Shown here one piece after another: positions 36,547 to 62,332 of a stretch of DNA of 64,000 bases. Made by a program: the position numbers and the translations under genes. Each line of letters begins with the position of its first letter. Position 1 is the stretch's first letter. The DNA is from Solirubrobacteraceae bacterium. Lineage in GTDB: Bacteria > Actinomycetota > Thermoleophilia > Solirubrobacterales > Solirubrobacteraceae. The stretch lies in the NCBI GenBank assembly GCA_035948945.1, contig DASZIQ010000048.1:14253-78252 (forward strand). The letters run 5' to 3'. The notes under the pieces are model-generated. The model was given only the letters and a program-made list of their open reading frames with translations, did no database searches and had not been told where the DNA came from.

Positions 36547-36563
36547 CTCCGTCTGCACCTCGC

Positions 36564-38293: not shown

Positions 38294-38383
38294 CGGCGGG
38301 CGCCCCCGCGCGTGCGGCGCCTACCCGGCCAACCCGCCTGGGCCACGCCGAGCCGGAGGGCGCCGTCAGGCGGCGCGGACGCG

Positions 38384-39475: not shown

Positions 39476-39486
39476 CCCACCCACCC
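39461..39486 (-). promoter_or_regulatory. G-quadruplex-prone tract GGGTGGGTGGGATGCGGGTGGGTGGG spanning the start codon of the SBP gene
   Basis: Six G3 runs with 1-4 nt loops on the coding strand. The ATG (39475-39473) lies in the central loop. Made of two tandem copies of GGGTGGGTGGGAT. Confidence 0.5.
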
Positions 39487-39488
39487 TC

Positions 39489-39520
39489 TCGCCGAAGGCG
39501 CGTGTCTCCCGGCTTGGGCC
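39489..39520. repeat. Half copy of the REP-like element
   Basis: TCGCCGAAGGCGCGTGTCTCCCGGCTTGGGCC matches the right half of the 35659-35707 copy. Confidence 0.7.
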
Positions 39521-39630
39521 GCTGGGCACTGCTGGGGGGCGCCCTCGAAGTCTGCAGAAGCTGTTCATCTCCATCCCCTTCCGTTTGATTGGAGGCCCAC
39601 CCGCCCACCTGCCCCGCTTCGGCCGCAGAC

Positions 39631-40692: not shown

Positions 40693-40827
40693 ATATGCAA
40701 GGTAGACGACGAAGCGGCGGGTAGAGTTTGGGATCGTCCACGTGAGCGGACGCTTCGGAGCGGGCGCGCGCGCGGCTGGCCTCCATGCCAGCCGGCCACT
40801 GTGCGCGGCTTCGATCTCGGCGCGCCC

Positions 40828-42372: not shown

Positions 42373-42422
42373 CTGACGCTCGATCGTCACGCTAGCGCAG
42401 GGTGCCGCTGGCGGGCGGGCGG

Positions 42423-42564
42423 GCCACATTGCTACGGCAGGCGGGCAAGCCACCACCGCTGCGGCCGGTAGGCGAGCGAGCCACCATTGCTACGGCCGGC
42501 GGGCAAGCCACTGCTGCGGCGGGCGTGCGAGGCGAGCCACCGATGCTGCGGCCGGCGGGCGAGC
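42423..42564. repeat. Five degenerate tandem repeats (26-31 nt, consensus GCCACCNNTGCTRCGGCCGGCGGGCRA)
   Basis: Read directly. Units start at 42423, 42449, 42480, 42507 and 42536. Units 1 and 3 are 25/27 identical. Unit lengths are not multiples of 3. Located in a divergent intergenic region. Confidence 0.8.
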
Positions 42565-47280: not shown

Positions 47281-48705
47281 CTACGCCACCCAATGCCAGG
47301 TCGCGAACTCGCCCACGAACAGCGCCATCAGCAGCGCCATCGCCACCAGCGCCGGCAGGCGCGCTCGCGGCCGTTCCGCCAGCCATGCCCCCAGCCACAT
47401 CGCCAGCGGGAACAGCACGACCTCGAAGCGCGGCAGCGACATCAGCGGCTGGGGCGCCACCGGGTAGGAGAGCGGCAGCGCGAGCGCGGCCAGCACGTAG
47501 GCGCCGTACGCCAGCGGCAGGCGGCGCAGCACGCCGACCACCATCGGTACTGCCGCCAGCAGGAACGCGAACAGCATCACGTTGTGCCCCGCATCCACGA
47601 ACGGATCCCCCCCCGCCACTTTGAAGTACACGTGCGTGCGCTGGAAGGAGAGCAGTTGGCGCAGCCCGTCGAAGGCGGCGCGCGCGCCGTCCCACATGGC
47701 CACGTATGGGCCGGCGAAGTGCCTGTTCCACGCCTCCTGGGCGTGGAACGGCAGCAGCGCGCCGCCTCCCGCAAGTGCCAGGTAGGCCATGTATGCGCCC
47801 ACCCCCAGCGGCAGCGCCGCCGCCCACAGCGCGTCGCGGCGCACCGCATAGCGTGGTCGCCACCACGCGCGGTCGGGGAAGTCCGGCGGGCGGTCCTCCC
47901 GCGGCCCGTACAGGTAGAGCACCAGCAGCGGCACGACCAGCACCAGCCCGGCGCTGCGCGTGGCGCTCGCCAGCGCCCCAAGCACCCCGGCCCATCCCCA
48001 CCGTCCCTGGCGCGCGCACCAGAAGAGGCCCACCGACAGCGCCAGATACAGCGACTCCGAGTAGACCGCGGAGAGGAAGAACGCCATCGGCGCGAGCGCC
48101 GTCACGAGCACCGCCAGCCGTGCAACGTCATCGCGATGGGCGGTGTGGGCGGCGGCCAGGCGGCCCAGTTCCAGCGTGCTCAGGCGGTGAATCCCATACA
48201 GCGCCGCCGCCAGCGCCACCAGCGAGAGCGCCACTCCCGCGACGATCGGCGGGGCGCCCAGCTCTGAGATCGCGCGTACGCCGAGCGGGTAGAGCGGGAA
48301 GAAGGCCGCCCGCGGGCCGGTGCCGAAGGAAGCGAGGTCGGGACGGTAGCCGTAGTGGGCGATCACCAGGTACCACACCGCGTCCCAGCGCGCGACGGGG
48401 GCCGCCAGCAGGTTGCCCAGCCAGCCGAAGCCGCTCGTCACGCCGGCCGGGTCGAAGGCGCTGCGCGCCCGCCCCACGCCGAACGCCGCGACCGCGCCGA
48501 CGCCCGCCGCGAGCACGATCAGGCGCGAGACCCACAGCGCCCGCCAGCAGTCGCGCACAGCGGCCATCCGCGCCGGATCTGCGCGGAGCCGCGCATACCG
48601 GCCCGGCGCATACGGGACCGGCGAAGTCGGGACGTCGGGGAGCGTCGCGGCTGCAAGCTCGCCCGCGCCTTTCACAACGGTCATCTCGGCGGTGTCGCTG
48701 CTCAT
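47281..48705 (-). CDS. Polytopic membrane glycosyl/mannosyltransferase-like protein (PIG-V/GT-C-like)
   Basis: WDAVWYLVIAHYGY and FFPLYPL motifs near the N-terminus. More than 8 TM segments. Confidence 0.6.
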   Translation of the reverse strand: MSSDTAEMTVVKGAGELAAATLPDVPTSPVPYAPGRYARLRADPARMAAVRDCWRALWVSRLIVLAAGVGAVAAFGVGRARSAFDPAGVTSGFGWLGNLLAAPVARWDAVWYLVIAHYGYRPDLASFGTGPRAAFFPLYPLGVRAISELGAPPIVAGVALSLVALAAALYGIHRLSTLELGRLAAAHTAHRDDVARLAVLVTALAPMAFFLSAVYSESLYLALSVGLFWCARQGRWGWAGVLGALASATRSAGLVLVVPLLVLYLYGPREDRPPDFPDRAWWRPRYAVRRDALWAAALPLGVGAYMAYLALAGGGALLPFHAQEAWNRHFAGPYVAMWDGARAAFDGLRQLLSFQRTHVYFKVAGGDPFVDAGHNVMLFAFLLAAVPMVVGVLRRLPLAYGAYVLAALALPLSYPVAPQPLMSLPRFEVVLFPLAMWLGAWLAERPRARLPALVAMALLMALFVGEFATWHWVA

Positions 48706-48826
48706 CTGTCAGGGCGTCCGCTTCTCGATCTCGCGCTCAACCGTGCGGAGTTCACGGACGTGACTGGCAGGAAATCACAGATTGGAGCGGTACCCTCCCA
48801 CAAGCAGTCCTTCGCGCCCCCCTCGC

Positions 48827-51094
48827 ATGTCACGACAAGCACGCCAGCGCCGCCGCCACCACCGGGGGCCCTCCCGCATCCTGCTCATCGTCCTGATCGT
48901 GCTGGCGAGCGCGCTGTTCCTCGGCAGCGTCGGCGCGGTGGCGTACGTGATCGCGGTCGCCGACTCCACGCAGGGCCTTGCCGGGCGCCACCCGATCGTC
49001 GAAGGCGCATCCTCGCAGGTGTTCGCTGCCGACGGCACGCGCCTGGGGTTCATCCAGTCCAACGAGCTGCGCTCGCCGATCCCCTGGTCGCAGATCCCCG
49101 CCAACCTCTCCAATGCCACGGTCGCGATCGAGGACCAGCGTTTCTACCAAGACGACGGCATCGACCCCACCGGCATCTTCCGCGCCGCCGTCAAGGATCT
49201 CGTGCACGGCGAAGCGATCCAGGGAGCGTCCACGATCACGATGCAGCTGATGCGCAACCTCTACCTCGGCGGCGACGAGCGTACGTTCAAGCAGAAGATC
49301 ACCGAGGCGAAGCTGGCGCTCGAATACAACGAACGCCACAGTAAGCGCGCGATCCTCACCAGCTACCTCAACAGCGTCCCCTACGGCACCGTCGGCGGGC
49401 AGACCGCGATCGGCGTGCAGGCCGCCTCACGGATCTTCTTCGACAAACCGGCCTCCCAGCTCGACCTCGAGCAGGCGGCGCTGCTCGCCGGCCTGCCCCA
49501 GGCGCCCTCGGAATACAACCCCTTCCTCTACCCCGCCGCGGCCCGCCAGCGGCGCAACGAGGTGCTGGGCAAGATGGCCGAGCTGCACTACATCACGCCC
49601 GCGCAGGCGGCCGCCGCCAAGCGCGCGCCGCTGGAGGTCCGCCACGGCGACTTCTACTCGGAAAAAAAAGAAGGCTTCTTCTTCGAATACGTCCGCCAGC
49701 AGTTGATCGACCGCTACGGGCGCAAGACCGTGGAACGGGGCGGCCTGCAGGTCCATACGACGCTGGACCTGCACAAGCAGGAACTCGCGCACAAAGCGAT
49801 CGCCGAAGTGCTCGACGAGCCCGGGGACCCGGCGTCGGCGATCGTCACGATCGATCCCCACAACGGCTACATCGAAACGATGGCCGAGTCCGAAAGCTAC
49901 GAGCAGTCGCAGTTCAACCTCGCCTCCGAAGGCCACCGCCAGCCCGGGTCCACCTTCAAGGCGATCGACCTCGCCGACGCGCTCTCCCGTGGAGTGGATC
50001 CCAACAGCACCTACTACCTCTCCCACACCCTGGTCAAAGGCTGGCTGGCAGCGGAACCGAACTATGAAGTGCACACCTTCGAGGGCACCTCGCTGAACAA
50101 GTCGATCAACCTCGTGCAGGCCACGCTCGCTTCCGACAACACCGTCTACGCGCAGCTGGCCGCCGATCTGGGCGAGGAATCGATTACCGAAATGGCTTAC
50201 AAAATGGGCGTCAAAACCCATCTGCTCGGCAATCCCTCACAGGCGTTGGGCGGCCTCGAATATGGGGTCACGCCGCTGGAAATGGCCGACGTGTACTCCA
50301 CGCTCGCCGACGGCGGCTACCGCAACACGCCGATCGCGATCACCAAGGTCGTGTTCCCCGGCGGCCGCGTCGACTCAAGCTGGGGAACACCCCACCGCGT
50401 GAAGGTGCTCTCCAACGGGGTCACCGCGGAGGAGACCACGATCCTCCACGAGAACGTCCTCAGCGGCACCGCGGTGCGCTCGGCGATCGACTGCCCCACC
50501 GCCGCCAAGACGGGCACGACGACCGAACTGGTGGACGCCTGGCTGGACGGCTACACGCCCGAATACGCGACCGTCGTGTGGATGGGCTACCCCAAGGAAC
50601 GCGTCCCGATGACCGACGTCCACGGCGAAGCCCAGCAAGGAGGGGCACTGCCCGCGGTGATCTGGCACGACTACATGGCGGCGGTGATCGAAGGCAAGCC
50701 CTGCGTGGAATTTCCCCAGCCGACCGAACCGCTGGTGTACCGGCCGTTCTTTGGCAAGTACGAGACCATGGACCAGTCGGCCGTGCCCAGCACCGGGCTG
50801 GAACCGAACCTCGGGCTCGGCACTGGCAAGGGCGCCACTCGCACTGCTCCGGGGAAATCCCATCACGGCAAGGAAACCGCCACCCCCGGCGCGGCCCCCG
50901 AAGCGCCCGGTGCGGGCACCGAACCGCGCGCGGGTGGCGGAGCGCCCACGGAAAAAGCGCCCGCCGAACCGACCGCTCCCAACAAAGCTCAGGCCGAACC
51001 GGGGGCCGGCGGGGCGGGCGGGCCCAACACCAGCACACCCAACGCGGGCGGCGGCCCCGGGGGAGCCGGGAGTGGTGGCACCGCGCCGCCGTGA
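48827..51094 (+). CDS. Class A penicillin-binding protein (transglycosylase + transpeptidase)
   Basis: GT51 motifs EDQRFYQDDGID, GASTITMQL. Transpeptidase SxxK candidate (PGSTFK), plus SDN and KTGTT. Low-complexity Gly/Pro/Ala tail. Start set at ATG 48827. Confidence 0.85.
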   Translation: MSRQARQRRRHHRGPSRILLIVLIVLASALFLGSVGAVAYVIAVADSTQGLAGRHPIVEGASSQVFAADGTRLGFIQSNELRSPIPWSQIPANLSNATVAIEDQRFYQDDGIDPTGIFRAAVKDLVHGEAIQGASTITMQLMRNLYLGGDERTFKQKITEAKLALEYNERHSKRAILTSYLNSVPYGTVGGQTAIGVQAASRIFFDKPASQLDLEQAALLAGLPQAPSEYNPFLYPAAARQRRNEVLGKMAELHYITPAQAAAAKRAPLEVRHGDFYSEKKEGFFFEYVRQQLIDRYGRKTVERGGLQVHTTLDLHKQELAHKAIAEVLDEPGDPASAIVTIDPHNGYIETMAESESYEQSQFNLASEGHRQPGSTFKAIDLADALSRGVDPNSTYYLSHTLVKGWLAAEPNYEVHTFEGTSLNKSINLVQATLASDNTVYAQLAADLGEESITEMAYKMGVKTHLLGNPSQALGGLEYGVTPLEMADVYSTLADGGYRNTPIAITKVVFPGGRVDSSWGTPHRVKVLSNGVTAEETTILHENVLSGTAVRSAIDCPTAAKTGTTTELVDAWLDGYTPEYATVVWMGYPKERVPMTDVHGEAQQGGALPAVIWHDYMAAVIEGKPCVEFPQPTEPLVYRPFFGKYETMDQSAVPSTGLEPNLGLGTGKGATRTAPGKSHHGKETATPGAAPEAPGAGTEPRAGGGAPTEKAPAEPTAPNKAQAEPGAGGAGGPNTSTPNAGGGPGGAGSGGTAPP

Positions 51095-51275
51095 TGCCGT
51101 GAGCGGTGCCACGACCCGCCGCGACGATTTCCACCACCACCATGCTGTGACATGCCGTGCGGTGGCAGAGCGCCACCGCGACGATCTCCACGAGCAGCCC
51201 ACCGCGCCGCCGTGACGATCTCGGTGAGCAGTGCCGCGCCGCCGTGACGAGCTGCGGCATCGCGCCGCCGTGACC
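51079..51275. repeat. Degenerate repeat array carrying four copies of GCGCCGCCGTGA (Ala-Pro-Pro-stop)
   Basis: Copies end with TGA at 51092-51094 (the real PBP stop), 51213-51215, 51245-51247 and 51271-51273. Degenerate units lie in between. Confidence 0.75.
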
Positions 51276-51303
51276 GTCGCCTGGTGCTAGGTTGTGCGCA
51301 CTC

Positions 51304-51522
51304 GTGGCAAAGGAAGATAAGGTCGAATTCGAGGGCGAGGTGATCGAGGCGTTGCCGAACGCGATGTTCCGCGTAAAGCTCGACAACGATCACGTGGTGC
51401 TCGGCCACGTCGCCGGCAAGATGCGCCGCTTCAGGATCCGCATCCTCCCCGGGGACCGGGTCCGCTGCGAGCTCTCCCCCTACGACCTCGACCGCGCGCG
51501 CATCGTCTACCGGCATCGCTGA
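51304..51522 (+). CDS. infA: Translation initiation factor IF-1
   Basis: [24 protein letters not shown]...[26 protein letters not shown] start at 51304. Confidence 0.9.
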
Positions 51523-51525
51523 GCC

Positions 51526-52788
51526 GTGTCCGAGGGCGGGCGGCGCGAGCATGCCGATCCTCGCCAGGCACGTTCGGAGGGCTCGGCGACTGCGCCCGGG
51601 CGCAGCAGCGAGCTCGCGCTGATCGAGGCGATCGCGGCTGAGCTGAACGCAGGCCGCCGCGCCAATCGCGCCGCCGGTCGGGTGCTGCGCGGAATCGGCG
51701 ATGACGCCGCCGTGGTGCGCGCCCGGGCAGTGTGCGTGACCTCAGTGGACGCGATGATCGAGGGGGTGCACTTCCGCCTGGGCGAGGAGTGGATGACGCC
51801 CGCGCAGGTGGGAGGCCGGGCGCTCGCCGCGGCGCTGTCGGACCTCGCCGCGATGGGCGCCGAGCCGGGAGAGGCGTACCTCGTACTGGGCCTGCCGCCG
51901 GGGTTGACCGAGGCGCTGGTGCTCGAGCTGGTGGGTGGTGCTCACGCACTCGCGCGCGCCACCGGGGTCACGATCGCCGGCGGCGACGTGGTGGCGGCAC
52001 CCGCGCTGATGGTGTCGATCACGGCCGTCGGTTGGGCCGACTCCGAGGATCAGCTTGTCGGCCGCGACGGAGCCCGGGCCGGCGACCTGGTGGGGGTGAC
52101 CGGCCGCCTTGGCGGGGCCGGTGCCGGGTTGGCGGTGCTGGAAGGGCGGGTGCGCGCCACGCCCACCACGGCCGCGGCAGTGAGCCTGCACAACCCGGTG
52201 TCCCCCACGTCTCTGGCCGCTGCACTGGCGCGCCTACGCAACCCCGTGCCCCGCCTGGCGGAGGGCCGCGCGCTGGCGGCCGCCGGGGCGCACGCCATGA
52301 TCGACCTCTCCGACGGCTTGGCGACCGACGCGCGCCACATCGCCCGCGCGAGCGGAGTGCGCTTGGAGATCGACCTCGGCGCGCTCCCCTTGGAGGAGGG
52401 GCTGCCCGAGATCGCGGCCGAGCTGGGAGTGCCCGCGTGGCAGATCGCCGCGGGAGCCGGCGAAGACTATGAGCTGTGCGTCTGCGTGGATCCCGCGGAC
52501 CGCGAGCGAGCCGAATCGGCGCTCGCCGAGATTGGAGGCCCCACCCGCCCGGGCATCACGTGGGTGGGACGTGTGAAGCGGGTTGCGGATCGGGCCGCGG
52601 GTCCATGTGGCGCGACCCCGGGCGCGGCTGCCCTGGCAGCAGGTGAGACTGCGAAGGCCGCGGATCGGGCTGCCCTGGCTGCAGGCGGGACTGCGGCGGC
52701 CGCGGATGAGGACGCCCAGGCTGGAGTTGTGCTGCTGGACGCGGAAGGGCGCGTCCAGCAACTGGAGGGGTTCGAGCACCGCTGGTGA
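51526..52788 (+). CDS. thiL: Thiamine-monophosphate kinase with Ala-rich tandem-repeat insertion
   Basis: [35 protein letters not shown]. Canonical C-terminus (VVLLDAEGR...GFEHRW) follows the insertion. Confidence 0.85.
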
Positions 52789-52910
52789 GAGCCGGCCAAC
52801 GGCGGCCCACGGGGCTGGTGGCCGACTGGGGCCGCGTCGATCCGGGATACATAGGACTACCCGAATAAGCCGACGGTCAAGATATATCCACGGCGTCCGA
52901 TATTCGTGCC

Positions 52911-55900
52911 ATGCGCAAGTCACTGCTGCCGCTGGACTCGGCGCTCGGGCCCCGTGAGCGCCGCATTTTGGGCACCGTCACAGCGGTCCTGATCGCGCTG
53001 GTGGTGGCGACCGGCGCGCACGCCATCTTCGGGATCGGCGGGAGTTCCGTCGAAGAACCGATCCGCGACTGGATCACCTCCGCGGTGTACATCCTCGTGG
53101 GGGTGATCGTCTGCTGGCGCGCCGTGCGCACCACGGAGTCGCGGAAATCGTGGATGATCTTCGCGTTCGGCATCTCGATCTATGGCCTCGGCAACGTGCT
53201 GTGGGCAGCCTGGATCGAACACCTCCCCAACCCCCCGATCCCCTCGATCTGCGACGGGATGTGGCTCACGCTGTACCCGTGCTGCTACATCGGGATCGTG
53301 GGCCTCGCACGCCTGCGCGAGCGGCGGGTGCCGGCGCGGATGTGGCTGGATGGCATCGTCGCCGGTCTCGGGATCGCTGCGATCGGAGCGGCGATCGTCG
53401 TGCGCCCGGTGCTGGCGACCGTATCGGGCGGAACGGCGGCGGTCATCACCGAGATGGCCTACCCTCTCTGCGACCTGCTGCTCGCGGCGCTGGTGGTGGG
53501 GGTGCTGGCGCTGCGCGGCTGGCGGCTGGACCGGATGTGGGCGATGCTGGGCGCCGGCTTCATCGCGCTGGCGGCGGCCGACTGCCTGTACGCGCTGCAA
53601 GTGGCGCACGGTGCATCGGCGCCCAGCGCGCTGACGAACATGACCTACGACATCGGCGTGATGCTGCTGGCGCTCGCGGCGTGGCAGCCGGGGGCGACGA
53701 TCGAGGCCGACACCGTTCCGAGCACCGCCGTGCTCGGGATCCCGGCCGCGTTCACCGTGAGCGCGCTCGGGCTGCTCGTCTACGACCACTTCAGCCGTCT
53801 GGACCCGATCGCGCTGACGCTGGCGATGCTGACGATGCTGGCGGCGTTCGCGCGCATCGCGCTCACGTTCCGCGACGTGCGGGCGCTCGCCGAAACGCGA
53901 CGCCAGGCGATGACGGACGACCTCACCTCGATGCCCAACCGCCGCCACTTCCTGCGGCGCGTGCACGACGGGATCATCGCCTCCAGGGCGACCGGCGCCA
54001 GCGTGGCGCTGCTGCTCGTCGACCTCGACCATTTCAAGGAGCTCAACGACACGCTCGGCCACGACGCTGGCGACCAGCTGCTGTGCCAGGTCGGCGAACG
54101 GCTGCGCACGGTGCTGCGCGCCACCGACACCGCCGCTCGGCTGGGGGGAGACGAGTTCGGCGTGCTGCTGGCCGAACCCTGCGATGGAGCCACCGCGGCG
54201 CTCGTGGCGGAGAAGATCCTCAAGGCGATCGCTCAGCCCTTCCCGATCAAGGACGTGGGACTGCGCGTGACGGCGAGCATCGGGATCGCGCTGTTCCCCG
54301 AGAACGCCGAGAACGACGAGCAGCTGATGCAGCACGCCGATGTCGCGATGTACGAGGCCAAGGCTGCGCAATCCGGGTACGCCCGCTATGCGCGCGAGCG
54401 CGACAAGCACTCACTCGAGCGCCTCACGCTCGCCGGCGAACTCTCGCACGCGCTGGAAGCGGGCGAGATCGAAGCCCACTTCCAGCCCAAGGCCGACGCG
54501 GGCAGCCGCCGGATCGTCGGCGTCGAGGCGCTCGTGCGCTGGCAGCATCCCACGCGCGGGCTGATCTCACCAGCGGAGTTCGTGACGGTCGCCGAGCAGG
54601 CCGGGCTGGGGCGGGCGCTGACGCGCAGGATGCTCGACCTGGCGCTCACACAGGTTCGGGTCTGGCGCGACGAAGGCTTCGATCTGCATGTCGCCGTGAA
54701 CACGACGGTCGCCGATCTGCAGGACACGCAGTTCCCGGCGGAGGTCGCCGCAACGCTGCAAGCGCACGGGCTGCCTCCGGAGGCGCTGGTGCTGGAGGTC
54801 ACCGAGAACATGGTGCTCGCCGACCCGGTGCGGGTCGGCGACGTGCTCGCGCAGCTCGGCGAGCTCGGCCTCGGCCTGTCGCTGGATGACTTCGGCACCG
54901 GCTTCTCCTCGCTCACCCACCTCAAGTCGCTGCCGGTGGGGGAGGTGAAGATCGACCGCTCGTTCGTCGGACGGATGACCACCGACCCCGTCGACGCGGC
55001 GATCGTGCAGGCGACGATCCAGCTCGCGCACTCCATTGGCATCCGCGTGGTGGCGGAGGGGATCGAGGATCAGGTGACGTGGAGCTCGCTCGTGGCCAAC
55101 CGCTGCGAGCTGGTCCAGGGCTACGCGCTCTCGCGGCCGTTGCCGGCGATCGACCTCGACACGCTCCTGCGCGCGCAGCCCCAGCCCGTGGGCGCGCTGG
55201 ACCAGATCGCGGACGGGCGGGGACAAATCACCGAGCTCGACGCCACGCCCTTGGCAAATGGGCTGGGTGCGCGGGACCAGACCAACGGCATGGGCGGGCG
55301 GGAGCAGCGCGACGGGGTGGACGGGCAGAGCCAAAACGGCGCCGGCCTCGGCGCGCCCTCGTCCAACGGGCACAACGGCAATGGACACAACGGCCGACCC
55401 GCGAACAGGGACTCATCCGAGGCGCTGCGCGACCTCACGGCGCTGACGCGCTCGCATCCGATGATGGACGCCGTGATCGAGGAGATCGACGGGCGCATGA
55501 TCCGCGTTGGGTCGCAGTGGCTGGCGGATTTCGCCTCCTGCAACTACCTGGGGTTTGACCTCGACCGCGAGATCATCGACGCGGTGCCCGCCTACCTGGA
55601 CACATGGGGCACGCATCCAAGCTGGTCGCGGCTGCTGGGCAGCCCCGTGCTGTACGAGCAGATCGAGCAGCGTCTCACGGCGCTGCTCGGCAGCGCGGAC
55701 TCGCTGGTGCTGCCGACGATCACCCACATCCACCTCTCGACGATCCCCGTGCTCGCGGGGTCGGGCACGATCTTCCTCGACGCACGGGCGCACAAGACCG
55801 TCTACGACGGCTGCCAGATGGCGCGAGCGCGGGGCGCCACGGTGAAGCGTTTCCGCTTCGAAGACCCGCAGCACCTCGACGAGCTGCTGCGCGGCGCGCG

Positions 55901-56705
55901 CGGCGAGCCGCGGCTGGTGTGCATGGACGGGGTCAACTCGATGACCGGCAACCCGCCCGACATCCGCGCCTTTGCAGCGGTGGCGCGCGAACACGGCGCG
56001 CTGTTGTATGTCGACGACGCCCACGGCTTCGGTGTGATCGGCGAGCGCGGCCCCGCAGAGCGCTGCCCGTACGGGATGCGCGGCAACAGCATCGTCCGCT
56101 ACCACGGTGAGAGCTACGAGAGCCTGATCCTGGTGGGGGGCTTCTCCAAGTCGTACTCCTCGCTGCTGGCGTTCATCGCATGCCCCACCGAGATGAAGGA
56201 GGTGTTGAAGGTGGCGGCCCCTCCCTACCTCTACTCGGGGCCCTCCCCGGTCGCCTCGCTGGCCACGACGCTCGCGGGCTTCGACGTCAACGAGCGCCGC
56301 GGGGAGGAGCTGCGCGAGCGCGTGTGGACGCACACCAGCCGCGTGCTCGATCGCCTCGCGGGCCTTGGCGTCTTCACCCCCAACCAAGCCGGCATGCCGA
56401 TCGTCGAGGTGCCGCTGCGCGACCACGCGCGCATCGGGGAGGTGGGGCAGCTGCTGTTCGACCGCGGCGTGTACGTCACGCTTGCGGCCTACCCGCTGGT
56501 GCCCCGCGATGAGGTCGGCTTCCGCGTGCAGCTGACGGCGGCCAACACCGACGCCGAGGTCGACACGCTGATCGCCGCGCTGGAGGAGCTCGCCGGGCTG
56601 GGCGAGCTGCGGGCCGTGGAGCAGGAGAGCCCCCCAACGGTCGAGCGGGCGAGCGCTCCATCCGTCGAGCAGACGAGCGCCCCCCAAGCCGAGTCGGTGG
56701 CGTAA
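52911..56705 (+). CDS. Multidomain protein: polytopic membrane sensor (aa ~20-320) + GGDEF (aa ~333-495) + EAL (aa ~505-748) + Asn/Gly-rich linker + alpha-oxoamine synthase-type PLP domain (aa ~851-1235)
   Basis: One uninterrupted 1264-codon ORF. RATD I-site, GGDEF at nt 54144-54158, EAL at 54525-54533, DDFGTG, KIDRSF, EGIED, QGY. Then NYLGF, VDDAHGFGVIG, GGFSK (Lys codon 56148-56150). Confidence 0.8.
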   Translation: MRKSLLPLDSALGPRERRILGTVTAVLIALVVATGAHAIFGIGGSSVEEPIRDWITSAVYILVGVIVCWRAVRTTESRKSWMIFAFGISIYGLGNVLWAAWIEHLPNPPIPSICDGMWLTLYPCCYIGIVGLARLRERRVPARMWLDGIVAGLGIAAIGAAIVVRPVLATVSGGTAAVITEMAYPLCDLLLAALVVGVLALRGWRLDRMWAMLGAGFIALAAADCLYALQVAHGASAPSALTNMTYDIGVMLLALAAWQPGATIEADTVPSTAVLGIPAAFTVSALGLLVYDHFSRLDPIALTLAMLTMLAAFARIALTFRDVRALAETRRQAMTDDLTSMPNRRHFLRRVHDGIIASRATGASVALLLVDLDHFKELNDTLGHDAGDQLLCQVGERLRTVLRATDTAARLGGDEFGVLLAEPCDGATAALVAEKILKAIAQPFPIKDVGLRVTASIGIALFPENAENDEQLMQHADVAMYEAKAAQSGYARYARERDKHSLERLTLAGELSHALEAGEIEAHFQPKADAGSRRIVGVEALVRWQHPTRGLISPAEFVTVAEQAGLGRALTRRMLDLALTQVRVWRDEGFDLHVAVNTTVADLQDTQFPAEVAATLQAHGLPPEALVLEVTENMVLADPVRVGDVLAQLGELGLGLSLDDFGTGFSSLTHLKSLPVGEVKIDRSFVGRMTTDPVDAAIVQATIQLAHSIGIRVVAEGIEDQVTWSSLVANRCELVQGYALSRPLPAIDLDTLLRAQPQPVGALDQIADGRGQITELDATPLANGLGARDQTNGMGGREQRDGVDGQSQNGAGLGAPSSNGHNGNGHNGRPANRDSSEALRDLTALTRSHPMMDAVIEEIDGRMIRVGSQWLADFASCNYLGFDLDREIIDAVPAYLDTWGTHPSWSRLLGSPVLYEQIEQRLTALLGSADSLVLPTITHIHLSTIPVLAGSGTIFLDARAHKTVYDGCQMARARGATVKRFRFEDPQHLDELLRGARGEPRLVCMDGVNSMTGNPPDIRAFAAVAREHGALLYVDDAHGFGVIGERGPAERCPYGMRGNSIVRYHGESYESLILVGGFSKSYSSLLAFIACPTEMKEVLKVAAPPYLYSGPSPVASLATTLAGFDVNERRGEELRERVWTHTSRVLDRLAGLGVFTPNQAGMPIVEVPLRDHARIGEVGQLLFDRGVYVTLAAYPLVPRDEVGFRVQLTAANTDAEVDTLIAALEELAGLGELRAVEQESPPTVERASAPSVEQTSAPQAESVA

Positions 56706-56812
56706 GGAGCCGCGCCGCGGGCCCGCACGCGCTATGAAAATGCGCCATTCGCGGGAACCCCCCAGCCTCTTTCCCGTCAGACCTTGGTGGGGGACGTGAT
56801 GGTGAGTAAGGC

Positions 56813-58186
56813 ATGATCGCCCGCTACCGCGCACTGTTCTCCGCGCCGGGCGTCGGGCGGCTGCTGGTCAGCTCGGTGGTGGGGCGCCTGCCCTCGGGCA
56901 TGTTCTCGCTGGCGATCCTGTTGTTCGTCCACGGGACGACCGACTCCTTCCTGGCGGCCGGCCTCGCGGTCGGAGGGTTCTCGCTGGCGGGCGCACTGAT
57001 CGGCCCGCTGCTGGGGGCGCAGGTGGATCGGCACGGGCAGACGCGGGTGCTGCTGGGAGCCGCCGTGGCCCAGGCGGGGCTGCTGGTGGCGCTGGTGCTC
57101 GTCACCCGGGCAGGCGCGCCTGTGGCGGCCACTGTCGCGCTCGCGGCACTTGCAGGTGGCGCACTGCCGCCGATCGGGGGCTGCGTGCGCGCGCTGTGGC
57201 CGGAGGTCGCCCACGGCGAGGAGCTGCAGACCGCCTACGCCCTGGACGCGACCACCCAGGAGACGATCTGGACGCTCGGCCCGCTGCTGGTGGGCCTCAC
57301 CGCGGGGTTCGTCTCGCCGGCCGCGGCGGTGCTGCTGTGCGCGGCGCTGGCGGTGCTCGGGACCAGCTACTTCGCGACCTCCAGGATCTCCCGCGGCTGG
57401 CGCGCGGATCGGCGCGAGCGCAGGCGAGGAGGCGCGCTGGGCGGCAGCTCCAGCCTGCGCATGCTGCTTTACACGGTCGTGCTCGCCGGCGTGGTGATCG
57501 GAGCGGTCGAGGTGGGGCTGCCCGCGCTGGCGGTGGGACAGGGCGCGCGCTGGTCCTCCGGCCCGCTGCTGGCCCTGTTCAGCCTCGGCAGCATGGCCGG
57601 CGGCCTGATCTACTCCGCCAGGAGCTGGACGAGCGCGATCGGCCGGCGCTACAGCGCGATCCTGATGGCGATGGCGCTCGCGGTGGCGCCGTTGATCGCG
57701 GTGCACTCGCTCGCCCCGGTGTTCGCCCTCAGCGTGCTCGCCGGGCTCTGCCTGGCGCCGATGATGTCCTGTCAATTCTCGCTCGTCGGCGCGCTCGCGC
57801 CGGAGGGCACCGTCACAGAGGCGTTCACCTGGCATCGCGCCGCCACGGTCGCCGGCATGGCCGGGGGATCGGCGTTGGCGGGGTCGCTGATCGACGCCCG
57901 TGGCGCCGGCGCCGCATTCGCGCTGGGCTGCGTGGGCGTGGCGGCGGCCGGGGTGCTCGCGGTGGCCGGACGCCGGCGCATCGAACCTCAAAAAAGGGCG
58001 ATCACCGAGGGCCCGGTGCCGTTCAGGCTGGCGGCCGAGGCGGTGGCGCTCGCGGCGGAGGCGGTGGCGCTGGCCGCGGAGGCGCCGCTCGCTCCGACCG
58101 CCGAGCAGCCGCGGGTGGGTGGGCCTCTCATCCTTGCAGCCGAGGCAGTGGGGCTTGCAGCGGAGGCGGTGGCGAGCGCCGCGTGA
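56813..58186 (+). CDS. MFS transporter with C-terminal AAEAVAL heptad-repeat tail
   Basis: 12-TM-like profile. 21-nt tandem repeats at 58031-58183. Confidence 0.8.
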   Translation: MIARYRALFSAPGVGRLLVSSVVGRLPSGMFSLAILLFVHGTTDSFLAAGLAVGGFSLAGALIGPLLGAQVDRHGQTRVLLGAAVAQAGLLVALVLVTRAGAPVAATVALAALAGGALPPIGGCVRALWPEVAHGEELQTAYALDATTQETIWTLGPLLVGLTAGFVSPAAAVLLCAALAVLGTSYFATSRISRGWRADRRERRRGGALGGSSSLRMLLYTVVLAGVVIGAVEVGLPALAVGQGARWSSGPLLALFSLGSMAGGLIYSARSWTSAIGRRYSAILMAMALAVAPLIAVHSLAPVFALSVLAGLCLAPMMSCQFSLVGALAPEGTVTEAFTWHRAATVAGMAGGSALAGSLIDARGAGAAFALGCVGVAAAGVLAVAGRRRIEPQKRAITEGPVPFRLAAEAVALAAEAVALAAEAPLAPTAEQPRVGGPLILAAEAVGLAAEAVASAA

Positions 58187-58952
58187 GGCGGTGGGGCGCC
58201 AGCGCCGCCCCCCCTGGCGTGGTCTTGGTGAGGCGCGCATACACCAGCAGCCGTTCGGCGGCGCTGAACAGGGGCGTGCAGGCAGAGAGCACGAGGCGGC
58301 TGTAGCCGGCGTGACGGATTGCCGAGGCCACATCGGAGGGCAGGACGCTGCGGTGCCCGATCACCGTGTAGAGGAAGTGCGCGTAGGGCATGTCCACCAC
58401 GATCCGATCCCCGCGGCGCAGCTCGTCGATGTGGCGGAAGGGCGCCAGGAAGGTGGTGCGGTGGCCGGCGATCGCGGTGGTGCCCCCCAGGCCGGGGAAG
58501 CGCGTGCCCGGGTAGCTGCTCTGCGTGTAGATCCCCGGCCCCCGCTCTAGTTCTTCGGTGCCGGTGCCGTACACCAGCACGAAGTCGGCGCCGATGCGCG
58601 GGATGCGGATGGAGCCCACGGCGCTGCCGAGGGCCGCGTGACGGGCAAGCTCGCTCGCCAGGAAGGCGACGCGGCCGCGCTCGTCCGCGAGCTCCAGCAG
58701 GCGCGCGTTCTCCCGCGCGGTGGGCTTGGCATGTTCGAGCTCGTGCAGCGCGCCCCGCAGGTGGTCCTGCTGCAACGTGGCATACAACGCCGAGAACGGC
58801 TCCTGCCACACCAGCGTGACGCCCACGTCGAGCAGCGCCAGCGCCCCCAGGACGATCAGCGCGCTCGAGAGCGCCCGCAGCGCGCGGCGCCCGCGCGCGG
58901 GGTCCCGGCGGCCGTGCACGGGTGGGCTGAGGAGGGTCTCGGACACGATCAC
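58128..58952 (-). CDS. Class E-like sortase (transpeptidase)
   Basis: N-terminal TM (ALSSALIVLGALALL), TAIAGHRTT His, LVLSACTP Cys (TLxTC-type), downstream Arg. GTG 58952 overlaps the upstream stop (GTGA). The 3' end overlaps the convergent MFS gene by 59 nt. Confidence 0.8.
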   Translation of the reverse strand: MIVSETLLSPPVHGRRDPARGRRALRALSSALIVLGALALLDVGVTLVWQEPFSALYATLQQDHLRGALHELEHAKPTARENARLLELADERGRVAFLASELARHAALGSAVGSIRIPRIGADFVLVYGTGTEELERGPGIYTQSSYPGTRFPGLGGTTAIAGHRTTFLAPFRHIDELRRGDRIVVDMPYAHFLYTVIGHRSVLPSDVASAIRHAGYSRLVLSACTPLFSAAERLLVYARLTKTTPGGAALAPHRLTRRSPPPPLQAPLPRLQG

Positions 58953-61048
58953 CGTCGCAGCGCGGACTGGGTGCCGACCGAAGCTGGGAGACACGCGCCT
59001 TTGGCGCTGGCCGATTTGGGGATGCGAGCGAAGCGAGTGTCTCCCCAATCGGTCCCCATTTCGGCCAGCGACCCGGGTCCAGCATAGGACAGCGGCCCGC
59101 GACCGAAGCCGGGAGACGCGAGCCGGTGACCGAAGCCGGGTGACACGCGCCTTCGGCGCGAGTCCCCGTTTCGGCCAGCATCCCCGTTTCGGCCAACGAT
59201 CGGCTCGCGATCGCCGGGCCACTCATGCGGCTCGCCGGCGTCGTCCTCGTTGGCGACGCGCGGGGCGAGCGCCACCAGCAGCGCCGCCGCGAGACAGCCG
59301 CAGGCGACGGACCACAGCACCGCGCCGGCGAACCCGATGCGCCCGCCGGCGAGCAGCAGCAGCGCGGTGTGCGCCACGCCTCCGGGCCCCAGGTGGAGCT
59401 GGTGAGCGTAGAAGGCCACAAGCAGCGCGAGCGGCGCCACGCCGAGCGCGACCAGCGCGAGCGCCTGGATGCGGCCCCCGCCGGCCCTGCCCCCGCCCGC
59501 GCCGACGCCGCGCCCGCCTGCACCCCACGCGCCGGGCGGCGCGGCGGCGAATATCAGCCACAGGTTCAATGCCGGCAGGAGCAGCAGCGCGGTGAACGGA
59601 TCGGACACCCATACCACCACCGTGAGGCCGCCTAGCACGAGCAGCATCCCGAGCGCCGCGGCGTCGCCCTGCGGACGCACCGGGAGTGCGAGCCGGCGCA
59701 TCAGCGCCGGCCACGCCAGCCAGGCGAGCACCAGCACGAGCGCGCTCGCCAGCACCGCCTCCAGGGCGTGGCCGTCGAACGGGAGCGCCGCTTCGGAGAC
59801 GGGCGGGCGCGGCGCGGGGATCGCGCCGAGCGAGCCCAGCAGGATCGCGAACAGCGCACAGGCGAGGAACGGGAGCGCGCACGCCAGCGCCCACACCACC
59901 CAGCGCCCGGCCGATCGATCGGAGGCGCCGCGGGTCGGCCCGCGGCGCCGGCGCAGGCGCGCGAGGCCGTCCCCGAGCACCGCCAGCGCCGGCAGCAGCA
60001 GCGCCGCGACCAGCAGGCGCAGCGCCCACGCGGGGATCGCCTTCTGCTGGATCGGCAGCCCCGTTTCGAGGCCGCTCTCATTCGCTTCGCCGCCGCCGAT
60101 CGTAGGCCCGCCGTCCAGCGCGTACACGGCGGCGAGCGCCGCGCGCCCGAGCGCTTCCAGGCGTCCCGCGCTCACCGGTTCGCCGGCCGGGGGAGCCTGT
60201 TCGCCGCCGGCTCCCACCAGCACCGCGGGCAGCCCGTGGGCATCGAGCGAGCTCTGTTCGCCGCCGGCGAGCGGGAAGGCGAGGTGCGCGAGCTGCGTGA
60301 GCATCCCGGGGGCGGCGGTCGAGCCCCCCGCCTGCTGCGCGACCGCCGCCGCCACGGTGCTCTGCAACAGCGCCGGCGCCGAGCCCGCAGAGGCCGAGAA
60401 CGACGCCACCTCGGGCCCGGACGCGCGCGTGCCCGCGAGATCGCCGAGCACCAGCGCGGCGTCGAAGCGGCCGCCCAGGATTTCGCTCGCGTGCGCCGCG
60501 AAGTCCGCGGCCCCTCCGTTCCCGCCCGAGCCGCCGCTGGTCGAGACCAGCACGATCGCATGCTGCGTCTCGCCGGCGGCGAGCACCCGCGCGAGTTCGA
60601 GCAGCGCCGCGGTGGCGGACAGCTCCGCCTTTGATGGGAACCCACCCGCCCCGGCGGCGTCGCGGTGGGCGAGGATCACGATCGGCGTCTCCCCCGTGGT
60701 GCCAGGCCGTTGCGCGATCACGGTGGTGAGCGTGCGCTCCCCGTCGATCGTCTGCGCGCGCACGCTGCGCGTGCTCACCGCGAAGCCACCCTTGGCGGCG
60801 CCCCCCAACCCCCGCAGCGTCCCCGCCACGTACGCGGCGAGCCGCTGGTCGCCCGCGCTGCCGGGGCGGCGTTCGGGAAACTGCCGGGCGAGCCCTTGCA
60901 GCGTGGCGAAGGCGCGCGCGCCTTCGAAGGCGTCGGGAGCAAGGTTGGAGCCGAGCGGCGCGGTGCGCCCGGTGAGCGAGAAGCCCGCGATCACCAACGC
61001 GAACAGCAGCGGGGCGAACGCTGCGCGATAGATGCGTCCGTTGAGCAC
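58949..61048 (-). CDS. Polytopic membrane protein with M28-peptidase-like extracytoplasmic domain (metal ligands appear degenerate)
   Basis: PIVILAHRDA and ALLELARVL resemble M28, but the expected Asp and Glu-Glu ligand positions are not conserved by eye. Start set at GTG 61048 because the longer ORF overlaps treT. C-terminal ~85 aa are encoded by REP-like elements. Confidence 0.55.
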   Translation of the reverse strand: MLNGRIYRAAFAPLLFALVIAGFSLTGRTAPLGSNLAPDAFEGARAFATLQGLARQFPERRPGSAGDQRLAAYVAGTLRGLGGAAKGGFAVSTRSVRAQTIDGERTLTTVIAQRPGTTGETPIVILAHRDAAGAGGFPSKAELSATAALLELARVLAAGETQHAIVLVSTSGGSGGNGGAADFAAHASEILGGRFDAALVLGDLAGTRASGPEVASFSASAGSAPALLQSTVAAAVAQQAGGSTAAPGMLTQLAHLAFPLAGGEQSSLDAHGLPAVLVGAGGEQAPPAGEPVSAGRLEALGRAALAAVYALDGGPTIGGGEANESGLETGLPIQQKAIPAWALRLLVAALLLPALAVLGDGLARLRRRRGPTRGASDRSAGRWVVWALACALPFLACALFAILLGSLGAIPAPRPPVSEAALPFDGHALEAVLASALVLVLAWLAWPALMRRLALPVRPQGDAAALGMLLVLGGLTVVVWVSDPFTALLLLPALNLWLIFAAAPPGAWGAGGRGVGAGGGRAGGGRIQALALVALGVAPLALLVAFYAHQLHLGPGGVAHTALLLLAGGRIGFAGAVLWSVACGCLAAALLVALAPRVANEDDAGEPHEWPGDREPIVGRNGDAGRNGDSRRRRVSPGFGHRLASPGFGRGPLSYAGPGSLAEMGTDWGDTRFARIPKSASAKGACLPASVGTQSALRR
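58976..59198. repeat. Cluster of REP-like palindromic elements (at least 3 full or partial units)
   Basis: Best unit is 59128-59176, GACCGAAGCCGGGTGACACGCGCCTTCGGCGCGAGTCCCCGTTTCGGCC. Partial units at 59099-59127 and 59181-59194. Composite unit at 58976-59068 with a nested hairpin, CCGATTTGGGGA...TCCCCAATCGG. Confidence 0.85.
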
Positions 61049-61096
61049 CTCGAAGAGAGTAACCCGGGGCGCCTGGAGTATCGGTATCGTGCGCGC

Positions 61097-62332
61097 GTGC
61101 TCCAGCCCGTCGCCGTCGGAACGAAGACGCTCGCCGATTACACCCACATCTGCGGGCGCGACCTGATCGATGAGATCCGCGAGCTGGCGGAGCCGCTGAA
61201 GGGCAGCCGCGTGGCGCACGTCTCCGCGACGGCGTTCGGTGGAGGGGTGTCGGAGATCCTGTACACGCTGGTGCCGCTGATGCGCGACGTGGGGTTGGAG
61301 TGCGAATGGCAGGTGATCTACGGGCGTGAGGAATTCTTCAACGCGACCAAGCTGATGCACAACGCTCTGCAGGGCGCCCCCGAGGACCTCGACGAGGAGC
61401 AGTGGGAGACTTGGCGGCGCTACAACGAGATGAACGCCCGCGAGCTGTCCGGCGGGTGGGACGTGTGCCTGATCCACGACCCCCAGCCCGCCGCGCTGCA
61501 CAGCCTCGTGCCGGGCAAGGCGAAGGGGTGGGTGTGGCGCTGCCACATCGACCTCTCCACGCCCAACCCGGAGACGATCGCGCACCTGATGCCCTACATC
61601 GAGGACTACCCCCAGTCGCTGTTCCATATGCGCGAGTACGTGCCGCCGGGGATGACCGGCCATGTCAACATCGTGCCGCCCGCGATCGACCCGCTGACGC
61701 CGAAGAACATGGGGCTCTCGCCGGAAGACGCCGCGTACGTGTGCGGCCAGTTCGGGATCGACGTGGACCGGCCGCTGATGTGCCAGGTGTCGCGCTTCGA
61801 CCCGTGGAAGGACCCGTTAGGGGTGATCGACGCGTATCGCATCGTCAAGGAGCGGGTGCCCACGGCGCAGCTGGCGCTGGTGGGGTCGATGGCGAGCGAC
61901 GACCCCGAGGGGTGGGACTTCTTCAACGCGACGATCGCCCACGCCGACGGCGACCCCGACATACACATCCTCAACAACTTCAACAACGTGGGGGCGATCG
62001 AGGTCAACGCGTTCCAGTCGCACGCCGACGTGATGATCCAGAAGTCCACGCGCGAGGGCTTCGGCCTGACCGTCTCGGAGGCGATCTGGAAGGCGCGCCC
62101 GTTCATCGGGGGCGCCGTCGGCGGGATCCCGCTGCAGATCGAGGACGGGGTCACCGGCTTCCTCGTGTCGAGCACCGAGGCGTGCGCCGAGCGCACGCAC
62201 GAGATCCTCGAGGACCCGGCGCTCGGCAAGTCGCTCGGCAAACGCGGCAAGGAGCACGTGCGCGCCAACTTCCTCACGCCGCGCTACCTTCGGGACTACT
62301 TGAAGATCTTCAACGAGCTACGAGAGTCATGA
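61097..62332 (+). CDS. treT: Trehalose glycosyltransferring synthase (TreT, GT4)
   Basis: 412 aa from GTG 61097. Long collinear similarity to archaeal TreT as I recall it (VNSTSFGGGV, FFNVTK.FHNALQG, HDPQPAAL, WRCHIDLS, QVSRFDPWK, DDPEGW, REGFGLTV.EA.WK). Confidence 0.85.
   Translation: MLQPVAVGTKTLADYTHICGRDLIDEIRELAEPLKGSRVAHVSATAFGGGVSEILYTLVPLMRDVGLECEWQVIYGREEFFNATKLMHNALQGAPEDLDEEQWETWRRYNEMNARELSGGWDVCLIHDPQPAALHSLVPGKAKGWVWRCHIDLSTPNPETIAHLMPYIEDYPQSLFHMREYVPPGMTGHVNIVPPAIDPLTPKNMGLSPEDAAYVCGQFGIDVDRPLMCQVSRFDPWKDPLGVIDAYRIVKERVPTAQLALVGSMASDDPEGWDFFNATIAHADGDPDIHILNNFNNVGAIEVNAFQSHADVMIQKSTREGFGLTVSEAIWKARPFIGGAVGGIPLQIEDGVTGFLVSSTEACAERTHEILEDPALGKSLGKRGKEHVRANFLTPRYLRDYLKIFNELRES

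Follow-up and report, generated by a model that had tools for sequence, protein, structure and literature searches.

Does a Solirubrobacteraceae bacterium encode a membrane-bound GGDEF-EAL protein and an alpha-oxoamine synthase (AOS) as a single polypeptide and, if it does, what connects the two activities? The question is raised by a 64,000-nt stretch of contig DASZIQ010000048.1 (assembly GCA_035948945.1, forward-strand positions 14,253 to 78,252), the whole of which is referred to here as the window. Positions 52911-56705(+) of the window form one ATG-to-TAA frame of 1264 codons plus stop, in which a membrane sensor, a GGDEF domain, an EAL domain, a low-complexity linker and an AOS domain follow one another. 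We found that a module consisting of a membrane sensor-GGDEF-EAL protein and an AOS, usually with an efflux transporter of the major facilitator superfamily (MFS), is conserved and that its first two components have been fused repeatedly.

A single frame encodes a sensor, GGDEF and EAL domains and a synthase

The features of the module in the window are given below with the evidence for each (aa, amino acid positions; TM, transmembrane; AF2, AlphaFold2; ORF, open reading frame; pLDDT, predicted local distance difference test).

52911..56705, plus strand: full fusion gene, TM sensor, GGDEF, EAL, linker and AOS (ORF, Pfam, 39 full-length orthologues)
52911..53870, plus strand: N-terminal membrane domain, aa 1-320, ~10 helices (hydropathy, AF2 model)
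53907..54371, plus strand: GGDEF diguanylate-cyclase domain, aa 333-487 (Pfam, motifs)
54117-54128, plus strand: I-site RATD, aa 403-406
54144-54158, plus strand: GGDEF motif, aa 412-416
54438..55139, plus strand: EAL phosphodiesterase domain, aa 510-743 (Pfam, motifs)
55173..55415, plus strand: low-complexity linker, aa ~755-835 (composition, orthologue alignment)
55416..56630, plus strand: AOS domain, aa 836-1240 (Pfam, catalytic residues, fold match)
56631..56702, plus strand: C-terminal tail rich in Pro/Ser/Ala/Glu, aa 1241-1264 (low pLDDT in the AOS model)
56813..58186, plus strand: MFS transporter, H+-antiporter (efflux) type, 107 nt past the fusion gene

A first-pass annotation, made from the letters of the window, had described a single 1264-codon frame without a stop and had listed motifs for the GGDEF, EAL and AOS domains, each of which we found in place. 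The frame itself was borne out by the ORF and by the G+C content at third codon positions (GC3). As GC3 was 0.89-0.94 in every segment, the linker (0.89) included, the frame codes throughout. Promoter and tandem-repeat scans gave nothing informative, with no tandem DNA repeat in the window's copy of the linker, and two terminator-like matches both lay within the ORF, a count equal to chance expectation. An Rfam search of window positions 48000-60000 found no c-di-GMP (cyclic di-GMP) or other riboswitch.

The fusion is maintained among relatives

A scan of one genome per GTDB species gave more than 532 stretches with a relative, and the best 80 loci were analysed. The labels of 79/80 were Solirubrobacterales, another Thermoleophilia family or uncultured Actinomycetes, the exception (L077) being a 1.9-kb contig binned as Candidatus Limnocylindria. 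Loci with TM-GGDEF-EAL upstream of AOS were termed type 1 and those with AOS upstream of the sensor gene type 2, which gave the following distribution.

39 loci: complete TM-GGDEF-EAL-linker-AOS in one frame, 1196-1294 aa, with a conserved M..LLPL N-terminus
3 loci: in frame at the junction, but with contig-end truncation or a far-upstream frameshift
3 loci: frame change at or near the junction (L017, L019, L029)
3 loci: two separate genes (L042, L050, L052)
30 loci: type 2, AOS ahead of the sensor gene
2 loci: uninformative, short contig

These data bear directly on the concern that the fusion is an assembly or sequencing artefact, in which an indel removed a stop codon in the low-complexity linker and merged adjacent TM-GGDEF-EAL and AOS genes. 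Such an error would fit the frame changes seen at or near the junction in some relatives (L005, L017, L019, L029), the obvious frameshifts elsewhere in the many related metagenome-assembled genomes (MAGs) that are long-read assemblies, and the true two-gene state in L042, L050 and L052. However, the complete single frame was present in 39 other species, and intact fusions were also found in short-read MAGs assembled with MEGAHIT or SPAdes (L008, L018, L028, L030, L033, L035, L044, L047, L056); the fusion is therefore not attributable to long-read indel error. The complete chromosomes OY970232.1, OY970219.1, OY970161.1 and OY969817.1 also carry it. The linker GC3 of 0.89 is likewise a typical coding value, and an independent fusion protein (P0121, described below) was recovered in identical form from two JGI contigs of separate samples. 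In the protein collection, the nearest homologues of the AOS were for the most part unfused proteins of 420-445 aa encoded by Solirubrobacteraceae MAGs, with a few that combined EAL and AOS. In three close relatives EAL, linker and AOS lay in one frame, with frameshifts elsewhere in those assemblies.

Motif invariance and linker variation were scored in an alignment of 40 full-length proteins. Across the orthologues, linker length ranged from 20 to ~110 aa and mean identity to the window linker was ~19%, yet the linker was always in frame, which indicates that selection keeps the polypeptide continuous without constraining the sequence of the linker. The catalytic residues that the first-pass annotation had called complete proved to be kept throughout: the I-site R and D, GGDEF and all EAL-domain motifs, as well as the AOS residues N878, H961, D1035, H1038, K1080 and R1205, were invariant in 40/40 orthologues. 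With the junction in frame in 42/48 type-1 loci, Illumina assemblies included, and the linker never out of frame, we conclude that the fusion is genuine and kept by selection, and that it joins two genes which adjoin one another across Actinomycetota.

The linkers also differ in composition. The linker region of the window protein (aa 746-850) is rich in Gly, Asn, Gln, Asp and Ala. Many orthologous linkers (e.g. L010, L011, L019, L023, L032) carry His-rich NGH(S/N)GNGH repeats and other orthologues are without them; the L002 linker has GNELNGHS tandem repeats.

Unfused pairs and an independent fusion

The three type-1 loci with two separate genes are L042, L050 (whose contig is also that of L004) and L052, which together make up a small subclade. 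The GGDEF-EAL gene of this subclade ends in EPAS or EPTS directly before the stop codon, and in L050 and L042 the AOS start overlaps the stop of the sensor gene (ATGA or GTGA), which points to a genuine two-gene state with predicted translational coupling. A different order was found in the 30 type-2 species, where AOS is followed by a ~1050-aa 10TM-PAS-GGDEF-EAL protein with intact I-site, GGDEF and EAL motifs and then by an MFS gene. In every locus with enough flanking sequence, AOS adjoined a GGDEF-EAL gene with the same membrane-domain family.

For a wider view, aa 321-1264 were searched with HMMER against 1.84 billion 50%-identity cluster representatives and the top 150 matches were examined. 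Among these there was one other fused representative, P0121, a 1500-aa protein with the order TM-PAS-GGDEF-EAL-linker-AOS and 48% identity to the window protein over a single 900-residue stretch. Other long two-stretch matches were ruled out as fusions, being duplicated GGDEF-EAL proteins; P0271, P0298 and P0375 are further fragments from the cluster-representative search with both EAL and AOS.

Unfused proteins with 70-75% identity to the P0121 AOS occur in cultured Streptomyces, Kitasatospora, Paractinoplanes and Dactylosporangium and in an Actinospica MAG. A 10TM-PAS-GGDEF-EAL gene precedes AOS in Kitasatospora, Dactylosporangium and Streptomyces. In Kitasatospora cinereorecta the last base of the 1060-aa PAS-GGDEF-EAL gene is the first base of AOS, which is followed by an SCO2525-family S-adenosylmethionine (SAM)-methyltransferase-like gene. 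The order in Dactylosporangium fulvum is PAS-GGDEF-EAL, AOS and MFS, the MFS protein being 61% identical to the type-2 MFS, and in Streptomyces roseicoloratus the sensor gene upstream of AOS is frameshifted. The P0121 locus is syntenic with the Kitasatospora locus, with polysaccharide genes upstream and GH15 downstream. In both of these loci the pair follows polysaccharide-biosynthesis genes (epimerases, UDP-glucose dehydrogenase, a beta-helix protein), and a GH15 glycosidase gene is near the pair in the Streptomyces, Kitasatospora and P0121 loci.

In a neighbour-joining tree of the AOS domains (no bootstrap values), P0121 grouped with the streptomycetes and the window clade with the split subclade, type 2 being sister to both. 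This grouping indicates that the fusion of AOS and sensor arose at least twice. Within the window clade, the branching suggests either fission or repeated fusion. The functional link between AOS and the c-di-GMP enzyme thus appears stronger than first proposed, given adjacency in two gene orders, its occurrence in distant actinomycetes and the second, independent fusion.

The synthase domain belongs to a distinct subfamily

The C-terminal domain matched Aminotran_1_2 (PF00155; aa 878-1224, E 9.7e-26, 91.2 bits against a cutoff of 19.7) and carries the AOS motifs NYLGF at 878, DDAHGFG at 1035 and FSK with K1080 (nt 56148-56150). Residues H961, D1035/H1038, K1080 and R1205 align with H159, D231/H234, K265 and R390 of serine palmitoyltransferase (SPT). 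In a Foldseek search, the AF2 model of the domain gave TM-scores of ~0.72 to Thermus AOS (ThAOS), SPT, BioF, KBL and 5-aminolevulinate synthase (ALAS) alike (E 2e-25 to ThAOS and SPT), which confirms the AOS fold and does not separate these five enzymes. Mean pLDDT of this model was 68.8, with low confidence round the active-site loops, as is expected when a dimeric active site is modelled as a monomer. By its residues and fold, the domain is predicted to be a catalytically complete alpha-oxoamine synthase.

The linker of the first-pass annotation is present but ends earlier, at ~nt 55415, and the AOS start that it had placed at the MMDAV methionines lies too far downstream, the domain beginning at aa ~836. 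There, SEALRDLTALTRSHP (aa ~836-850) forms a conserved N-terminal AOS segment ahead of MMDAV, and stand-alone AOS orthologues begin ~20 residues upstream of MMDAV with an (E/D)(A/S)LRDL..L..SHP segment. It had also been considered that AOS might be made separately from these methionines. Such an internal start was ruled out: no Shine-Dalgarno sequence precedes MMDAV in the window, the methionines lie within the conserved AOS N-terminus, and separate translation is therefore unsupported.

With the AOS domain queried alone, the scores remained below the cutoffs of the SPT equivalogs NF047599, NF047600 and NF047603 (191, 153 and 143 bits against 500, 640 and 670), BioF TIGR00858 (182-186 against 426), KBL PRK06939 and TIGR01822 (147-151 against 460 and 123-127 against 493), ALAS TIGR01821 (106 against 338.55, with ALAS matches weak overall at 88-106 bits) and CqsA/LqsA NF005526 (69 against 428). 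The range for the NCBIfam SPT model was 187-191 bits. A profile of the family scored 164 bits against the solved structure of Thermus AOS, 143-151 against SPT, 139 against KBL, 121 against BioF, 102 against ALAS and 50 against CqsA, and the top single-sequence PDB matches were bacterial serine palmitoyltransferases (141 bits). The position of the SPT-specific, serine-binding Arg378 (S. paucimobilis numbering) is Ala in the window protein, and a family-specific insertion of ~11 residues stands ahead of the lysine strand, at ERGPAERCPYGMRGNSIVRYHGESY. Because of the scores below each curated equivalog cutoff, the change of R378 to Ala and the insertion, we consider the AOS to represent a distinct subfamily, to which, of the AOS types, the CqsA/LqsA autoinducer synthases appear least alike. 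The CqsA/LqsA flavour suggested in the first-pass annotation is consequently not retained (69 bits against 428, and 50 bits to CqsA structures against 140-164 for SPT and Thermus AOS). No sensor histidine kinase of the CqsS/LqsS type was found in the examined neighbourhoods, the partner being GGDEF-EAL in each locus.

The c-di-GMP domains are ordinary and the membrane domain is not assignable to a known fold

The GGDEF domain (PF00990; aa 333-487, E 5.6e-45, 153.4 bits against a cutoff of 23.8) has its RATD I-site (aa 403-406) five residues ahead of the GGDEF motif (aa 412-416). The EAL domain (PF00563; aa 510-743, E 5.2e-68, 229.4 bits against a cutoff of 31.3) carries EAL at 539-541, DDFGTG at 659, KIDRSF at 680, EGIED at 716 and QGY at 736. 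Both halves look like ordinary members of their families, and c-di-GMP synthesis is predicted.

No Pfam family matched the membrane domain (aa 1-320), for which hydropathy indicated ~10 hydrophobic helices in the first 320 residues. A search of a 5.8-billion-protein collection with this domain gave 55 mostly fragmentary matches, none full-length, which are not usable for counting fusions; they were the alignment input for an AF2 model (pLDDT 87.9) that also has ~10 helices. With this model, the best Foldseek match in the PDB had an E of 0.23, and TM-scores were below 0.45 (MFS, rhodopsin and other helical bundles), so no sensor or transporter fold can be assigned. Intramembrane residues D115, D147, D188, D224, W81, W145, W204 and W258 (alignment columns) were invariant, a pattern that, we infer, would suit the binding of a cationic amine. 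The membrane domain and the N-terminal region of the 10TM-PAS-GGDEF-EAL partner are homologous (E 8e-11), with the common motifs PxPSxxDG, YP and AYPLxD.

Three species encode a second TM-GGDEF-EAL paralogue after the MFS gene, downstream of the fusion (L044 9782-11869, L046 9680-11803, L055 9784-11844). Identity of this paralogue is ~27% in the membrane domain and 40-43% in GGDEF and EAL, and the module in these species therefore holds two related sensors.

Neighbouring genes

No terminator-like site was found between the fusion gene and the MFS gene in the window, and an MFS gene lay downstream in every type-1 locus whose contig reaches past AOS. The MFS proteins of both arrangements matched TIGR00900 (H+-antiporter efflux), those of type 2 also matching Tet(V), EntS and Mef; the type-1 and type-2 proteins are not orthologous (E 0.007). 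In the Streptomyces and Kitasatospora loci the place after AOS is taken by SCO2525-family SAM-methyltransferase-like genes (L090 9266-10018 and L091 9262-10005), with 123-129 bits, below the cutoff of 240.

The upstream AIRS-family gene (51526-52788(+)) is ThiL, thiamine-phosphate kinase (235 bits against a cutoff of 184). It is absent from unfused and type-2 loci and was ruled out as a part of the module. In L001 and L005, gene calls near ThiL also carry a match to an eIF-1a/IF-1-like S1 domain, and the gap at 51094-51526 of the window may contain a small infA-like gene. Beyond the MFS gene lie a sortase (58128-59222(-)) and a TreT-type trehalose synthase/GT1 (60665-62332(+)), both syntenic with L001 and L005. 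A 904-aa ORF at 58949-61663(-) with a marginal Peptidase_M28 match is probably in part spurious, because it overlaps both of these genes.

Farther away in the window, a 774-aa ORF (34492-36816(-), GC3 0.88) joins an ABC-transporter ATPase (aa 135-276) and a class-III aminotransferase (aa 417-754) in one frame. Next to it, at 37439-42453 on the minus strand, are genes for a solute-binding protein, a permease, an arginase-family enzyme and an aldehyde dehydrogenase, and the region looks like a polyamine or agmatine uptake/catabolism cluster with a second unusual fusion.

A proposed role for the module and its alternatives

How might the synthase and the c-di-GMP enzyme work together? With moderate confidence, we propose that sensor/c-di-GMP enzyme, AOS and exporter form a conserved module that would make and export an aminoketone-type metabolite, with the fusion serving to anchor the synthase to the membrane enzyme. 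A homodimer of the AOS domain would condense an amino acid with an acyl-CoA or acyl-ACP (acyl carrier protein) to give an alpha-aminoketone-type metabolite, which the MFS protein would export. The linker would serve as a tether and not as an allosteric relay, because it is disordered and its length is unconstrained; it would impose 1:1 stoichiometry and keep the synthase at the membrane, by the exporter and the sensor domain. As AOS enzymes are obligate dimers and GGDEF domains need dimerisation, the AOS would also add a dimerising module to the c-di-GMP enzyme, and metabolite production and c-di-GMP turnover would thereby be coupled.

The likeliest form of this coupling would be that the Asp/Trp-rich membrane domain senses the amine-bearing lipophilic product or a precursor and sets the balance of GGDEF and EAL. 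We find product sensing the most attractive form of the coupling and suggest it tentatively. Direct control of AOS through the I-site is unlikely because the linker is disordered and variable in length. A further and rather speculative extension is that the module might constitute a new type of signalling circuit in actinobacteria, acting between cells or in an autocrine manner, in which AOS would make a diffusible aminoketone-derived signal, the MFS protein would export it and the 10-helix Asp/Trp-rich domain would be the receptor that turns signal level into c-di-GMP, with synthase and receptor in one polypeptide in the window clade.

Several observations weigh against the metabolite-export module that we favour. 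The substrates of the AOS cannot be read from its sequence, and no acyl carrier protein or acyl-CoA ligase gene was found to be conserved near the module. AOS identity of 60-65% between classes would also fit a housekeeping enzyme. The membrane domain occurs as well in a TM-GGDEF paralogue (~500 aa) that does not adjoin AOS, and its family is therefore wider than this module. In the streptomycete loci, the third gene is SAM-methyltransferase-like, not MFS, and the divergent AOS L094, on a 2.7-kb contig, has an MFS gene but no GGDEF-EAL in the short sequence available.

The alternative that survives best, though we regard it as doubtful, is an SPT-like lipid enzyme that supplies a long-chain base or aminolipid precursor for the envelope, with the MFS protein as a lipid or lysolipid transporter and c-di-GMP tied to envelope remodelling, not to a diffusible signal. 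The bacterial SPTs among the top single-sequence matches (141 bits in the PDB, 187-191 bits for NCBIfam SPT) are consistent with this, as are the suitability of membrane tethering for a hydrophobic acyl substrate, a weak match of the type-2 MFS to the lysophospholipid transporter LplT and the polysaccharide and envelope genes that adjoin the streptomycete-type loci. The same 187-191 bits, however, compare with an SPT cutoff of 500, the Arg378 position is Ala, the best MFS matches are the efflux families Tet(V), EntS and Mef, and the neighbourhood has no conserved gene for an ACP, a ceramide synthase or a reductase.

We consider it improbable that the AOS is a housekeeping BioF (biotin) or KBL (threonine catabolism) whose fusion and adjacency have no signalling meaning. 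Its homologues are annotated in the sources as 8-amino-7-oxononanoate synthase, its conservation across classes is very high and the best PDB profile match is the promiscuous Thermus BioF/KBL enzyme. Yet the scores fall far below the equivalog cutoffs (BioF 182-186 against 426, KBL 127-151 against 460-493), and no bioA, bioB, bioD or tdh was identified among the called neighbours (PBP, ThiL, MFS, sortase). A housekeeping gene would also not be expected to keep its place next to a GGDEF-EAL sensor in two gene orders, in two independent fusions and across two classes.

About as improbable is a regulatory or sensory AOS domain that binds an amino acid or a pyridoxal 5'-phosphate (PLP) adduct and controls GGDEF/EAL, making no metabolite. 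There is a precedent in the MocR/GabR regulators, in which a PLP fold-type-I domain has taken on a sensory role, and here the domain is fused to a signalling protein. Against this, all catalytic residues are invariant, most lineages encode AOS as a gene of its own, a dedicated efflux pump accompanies it, and a domain that comes after the output domains, with a disordered linker of variable length in between, is poorly placed to pass on a conformational signal.

The weakest alternative, the merging of two genes by an indel, is effectively refuted by the survey of relatives.

Comparison with known systems

The CqsA/CqsS pair of Vibrio and the LqsA/LqsS pair of Legionella are alpha-hydroxyketone quorum-sensing systems, and they share with the present module the synthase-receptor logic of an AOS-family synthase encoded beside a polytopic membrane sensor. 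The present AOS is far from these synthases (69 bits against 428; 50 bits to CqsA structures), however, the output of its sensor is GGDEF-EAL and not a histidine kinase, the module includes an MFS exporter, and synthase and sensor can be joined in one chain. Bacterial SPT and Thermus thermophilus ThAOS (PDB 7poa/8s1y) are the best matches to the AOS domain (~26-30% identity, TM-score 0.72) and have the same His, Asp-x-x-His, Lys and Arg, whereas the window AOS differs from them in its scores below the equivalog cutoffs, the R378 to Ala change, the 11-residue insertion, its own conserved N-terminal segment and its invariable pairing with a c-di-GMP enzyme.

On the side of the c-di-GMP enzyme, Streptomyces venezuelae CdgF is a 10TM-PAS-PAC-GGDEF-EAL protein that is predicted to be bifunctional and whose signal and role are unknown, and S. 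venezuelae RmdB is 6TM-GGDEF-EAL (PMC6205966). Like the window protein, both begin with a polytopic membrane region and continue into intact GGDEF and EAL domains, and in domain architecture the unfused AOS partner of Kitasatospora, Dactylosporangium and the type-2 Solirubrobacterales matches CdgF exactly. In contrast to the window protein, which is without PAS, the described proteins have no C-terminal enzyme domain or link to AOS.

An AOS and an MFS exporter also occur together in an actinomycete in the alaremycin cluster, where the AOS AlmA makes a small aminoketone acid and the exporter AlmE is encoded alongside (PMC12006855). AlmA is ALAS-like, whereas the window AOS matches ALAS weakly (88-106 bits); the window module has no N-acetyltransferase or oxidoreductase partner, and no GGDEF-EAL gene is described in the alaremycin cluster.

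A literature search returned no paper on the GGDEF-EAL-AOS architecture or on the AOS/GGDEF-EAL gene pair, in agreement with the first-pass annotation, which knew of no characterised protein with this architecture. The same annotation had allowed that the architecture might prove common and already characterised; it is common, as the usual state in one Solirubrobacterales clade, but no publication that characterises it was found. The domains are known, whereas their combination is uncharacterised and widely conserved, and comparative genomics gives unusually strong evidence that the two parts are functionally linked.

Significance

Development and antibiotic production in actinomycetes are governed by c-di-GMP and, to our knowledge, the signals that control membrane-bound GGDEF-EAL proteins are mostly unknown, in actinomycetes as elsewhere. 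A fusion together with a conserved neighbourhood is classic Rosetta-stone evidence of a functional link. Here, a specific AOS subfamily, uncharacterised and highly conserved, is tied at the genetic level to a single family of membrane GGDEF-EAL sensors from Thermoleophilia to Actinomycetes, and the link takes three forms: adjacency, translational coupling through stop/start overlap and two independent fusions. An efflux pump is usually part of the module. This provides a concrete and testable lead, as cultured carriers include Kitasatospora cinereorecta, Dactylosporangium fulvum and several Streptomyces species. Should the ligand of the sensor prove to be the AOS product, the module would constitute a new route of signalling from a small molecule to c-di-GMP; if c-di-GMP instead governs the synthase, it would represent a new class of c-di-GMP output.

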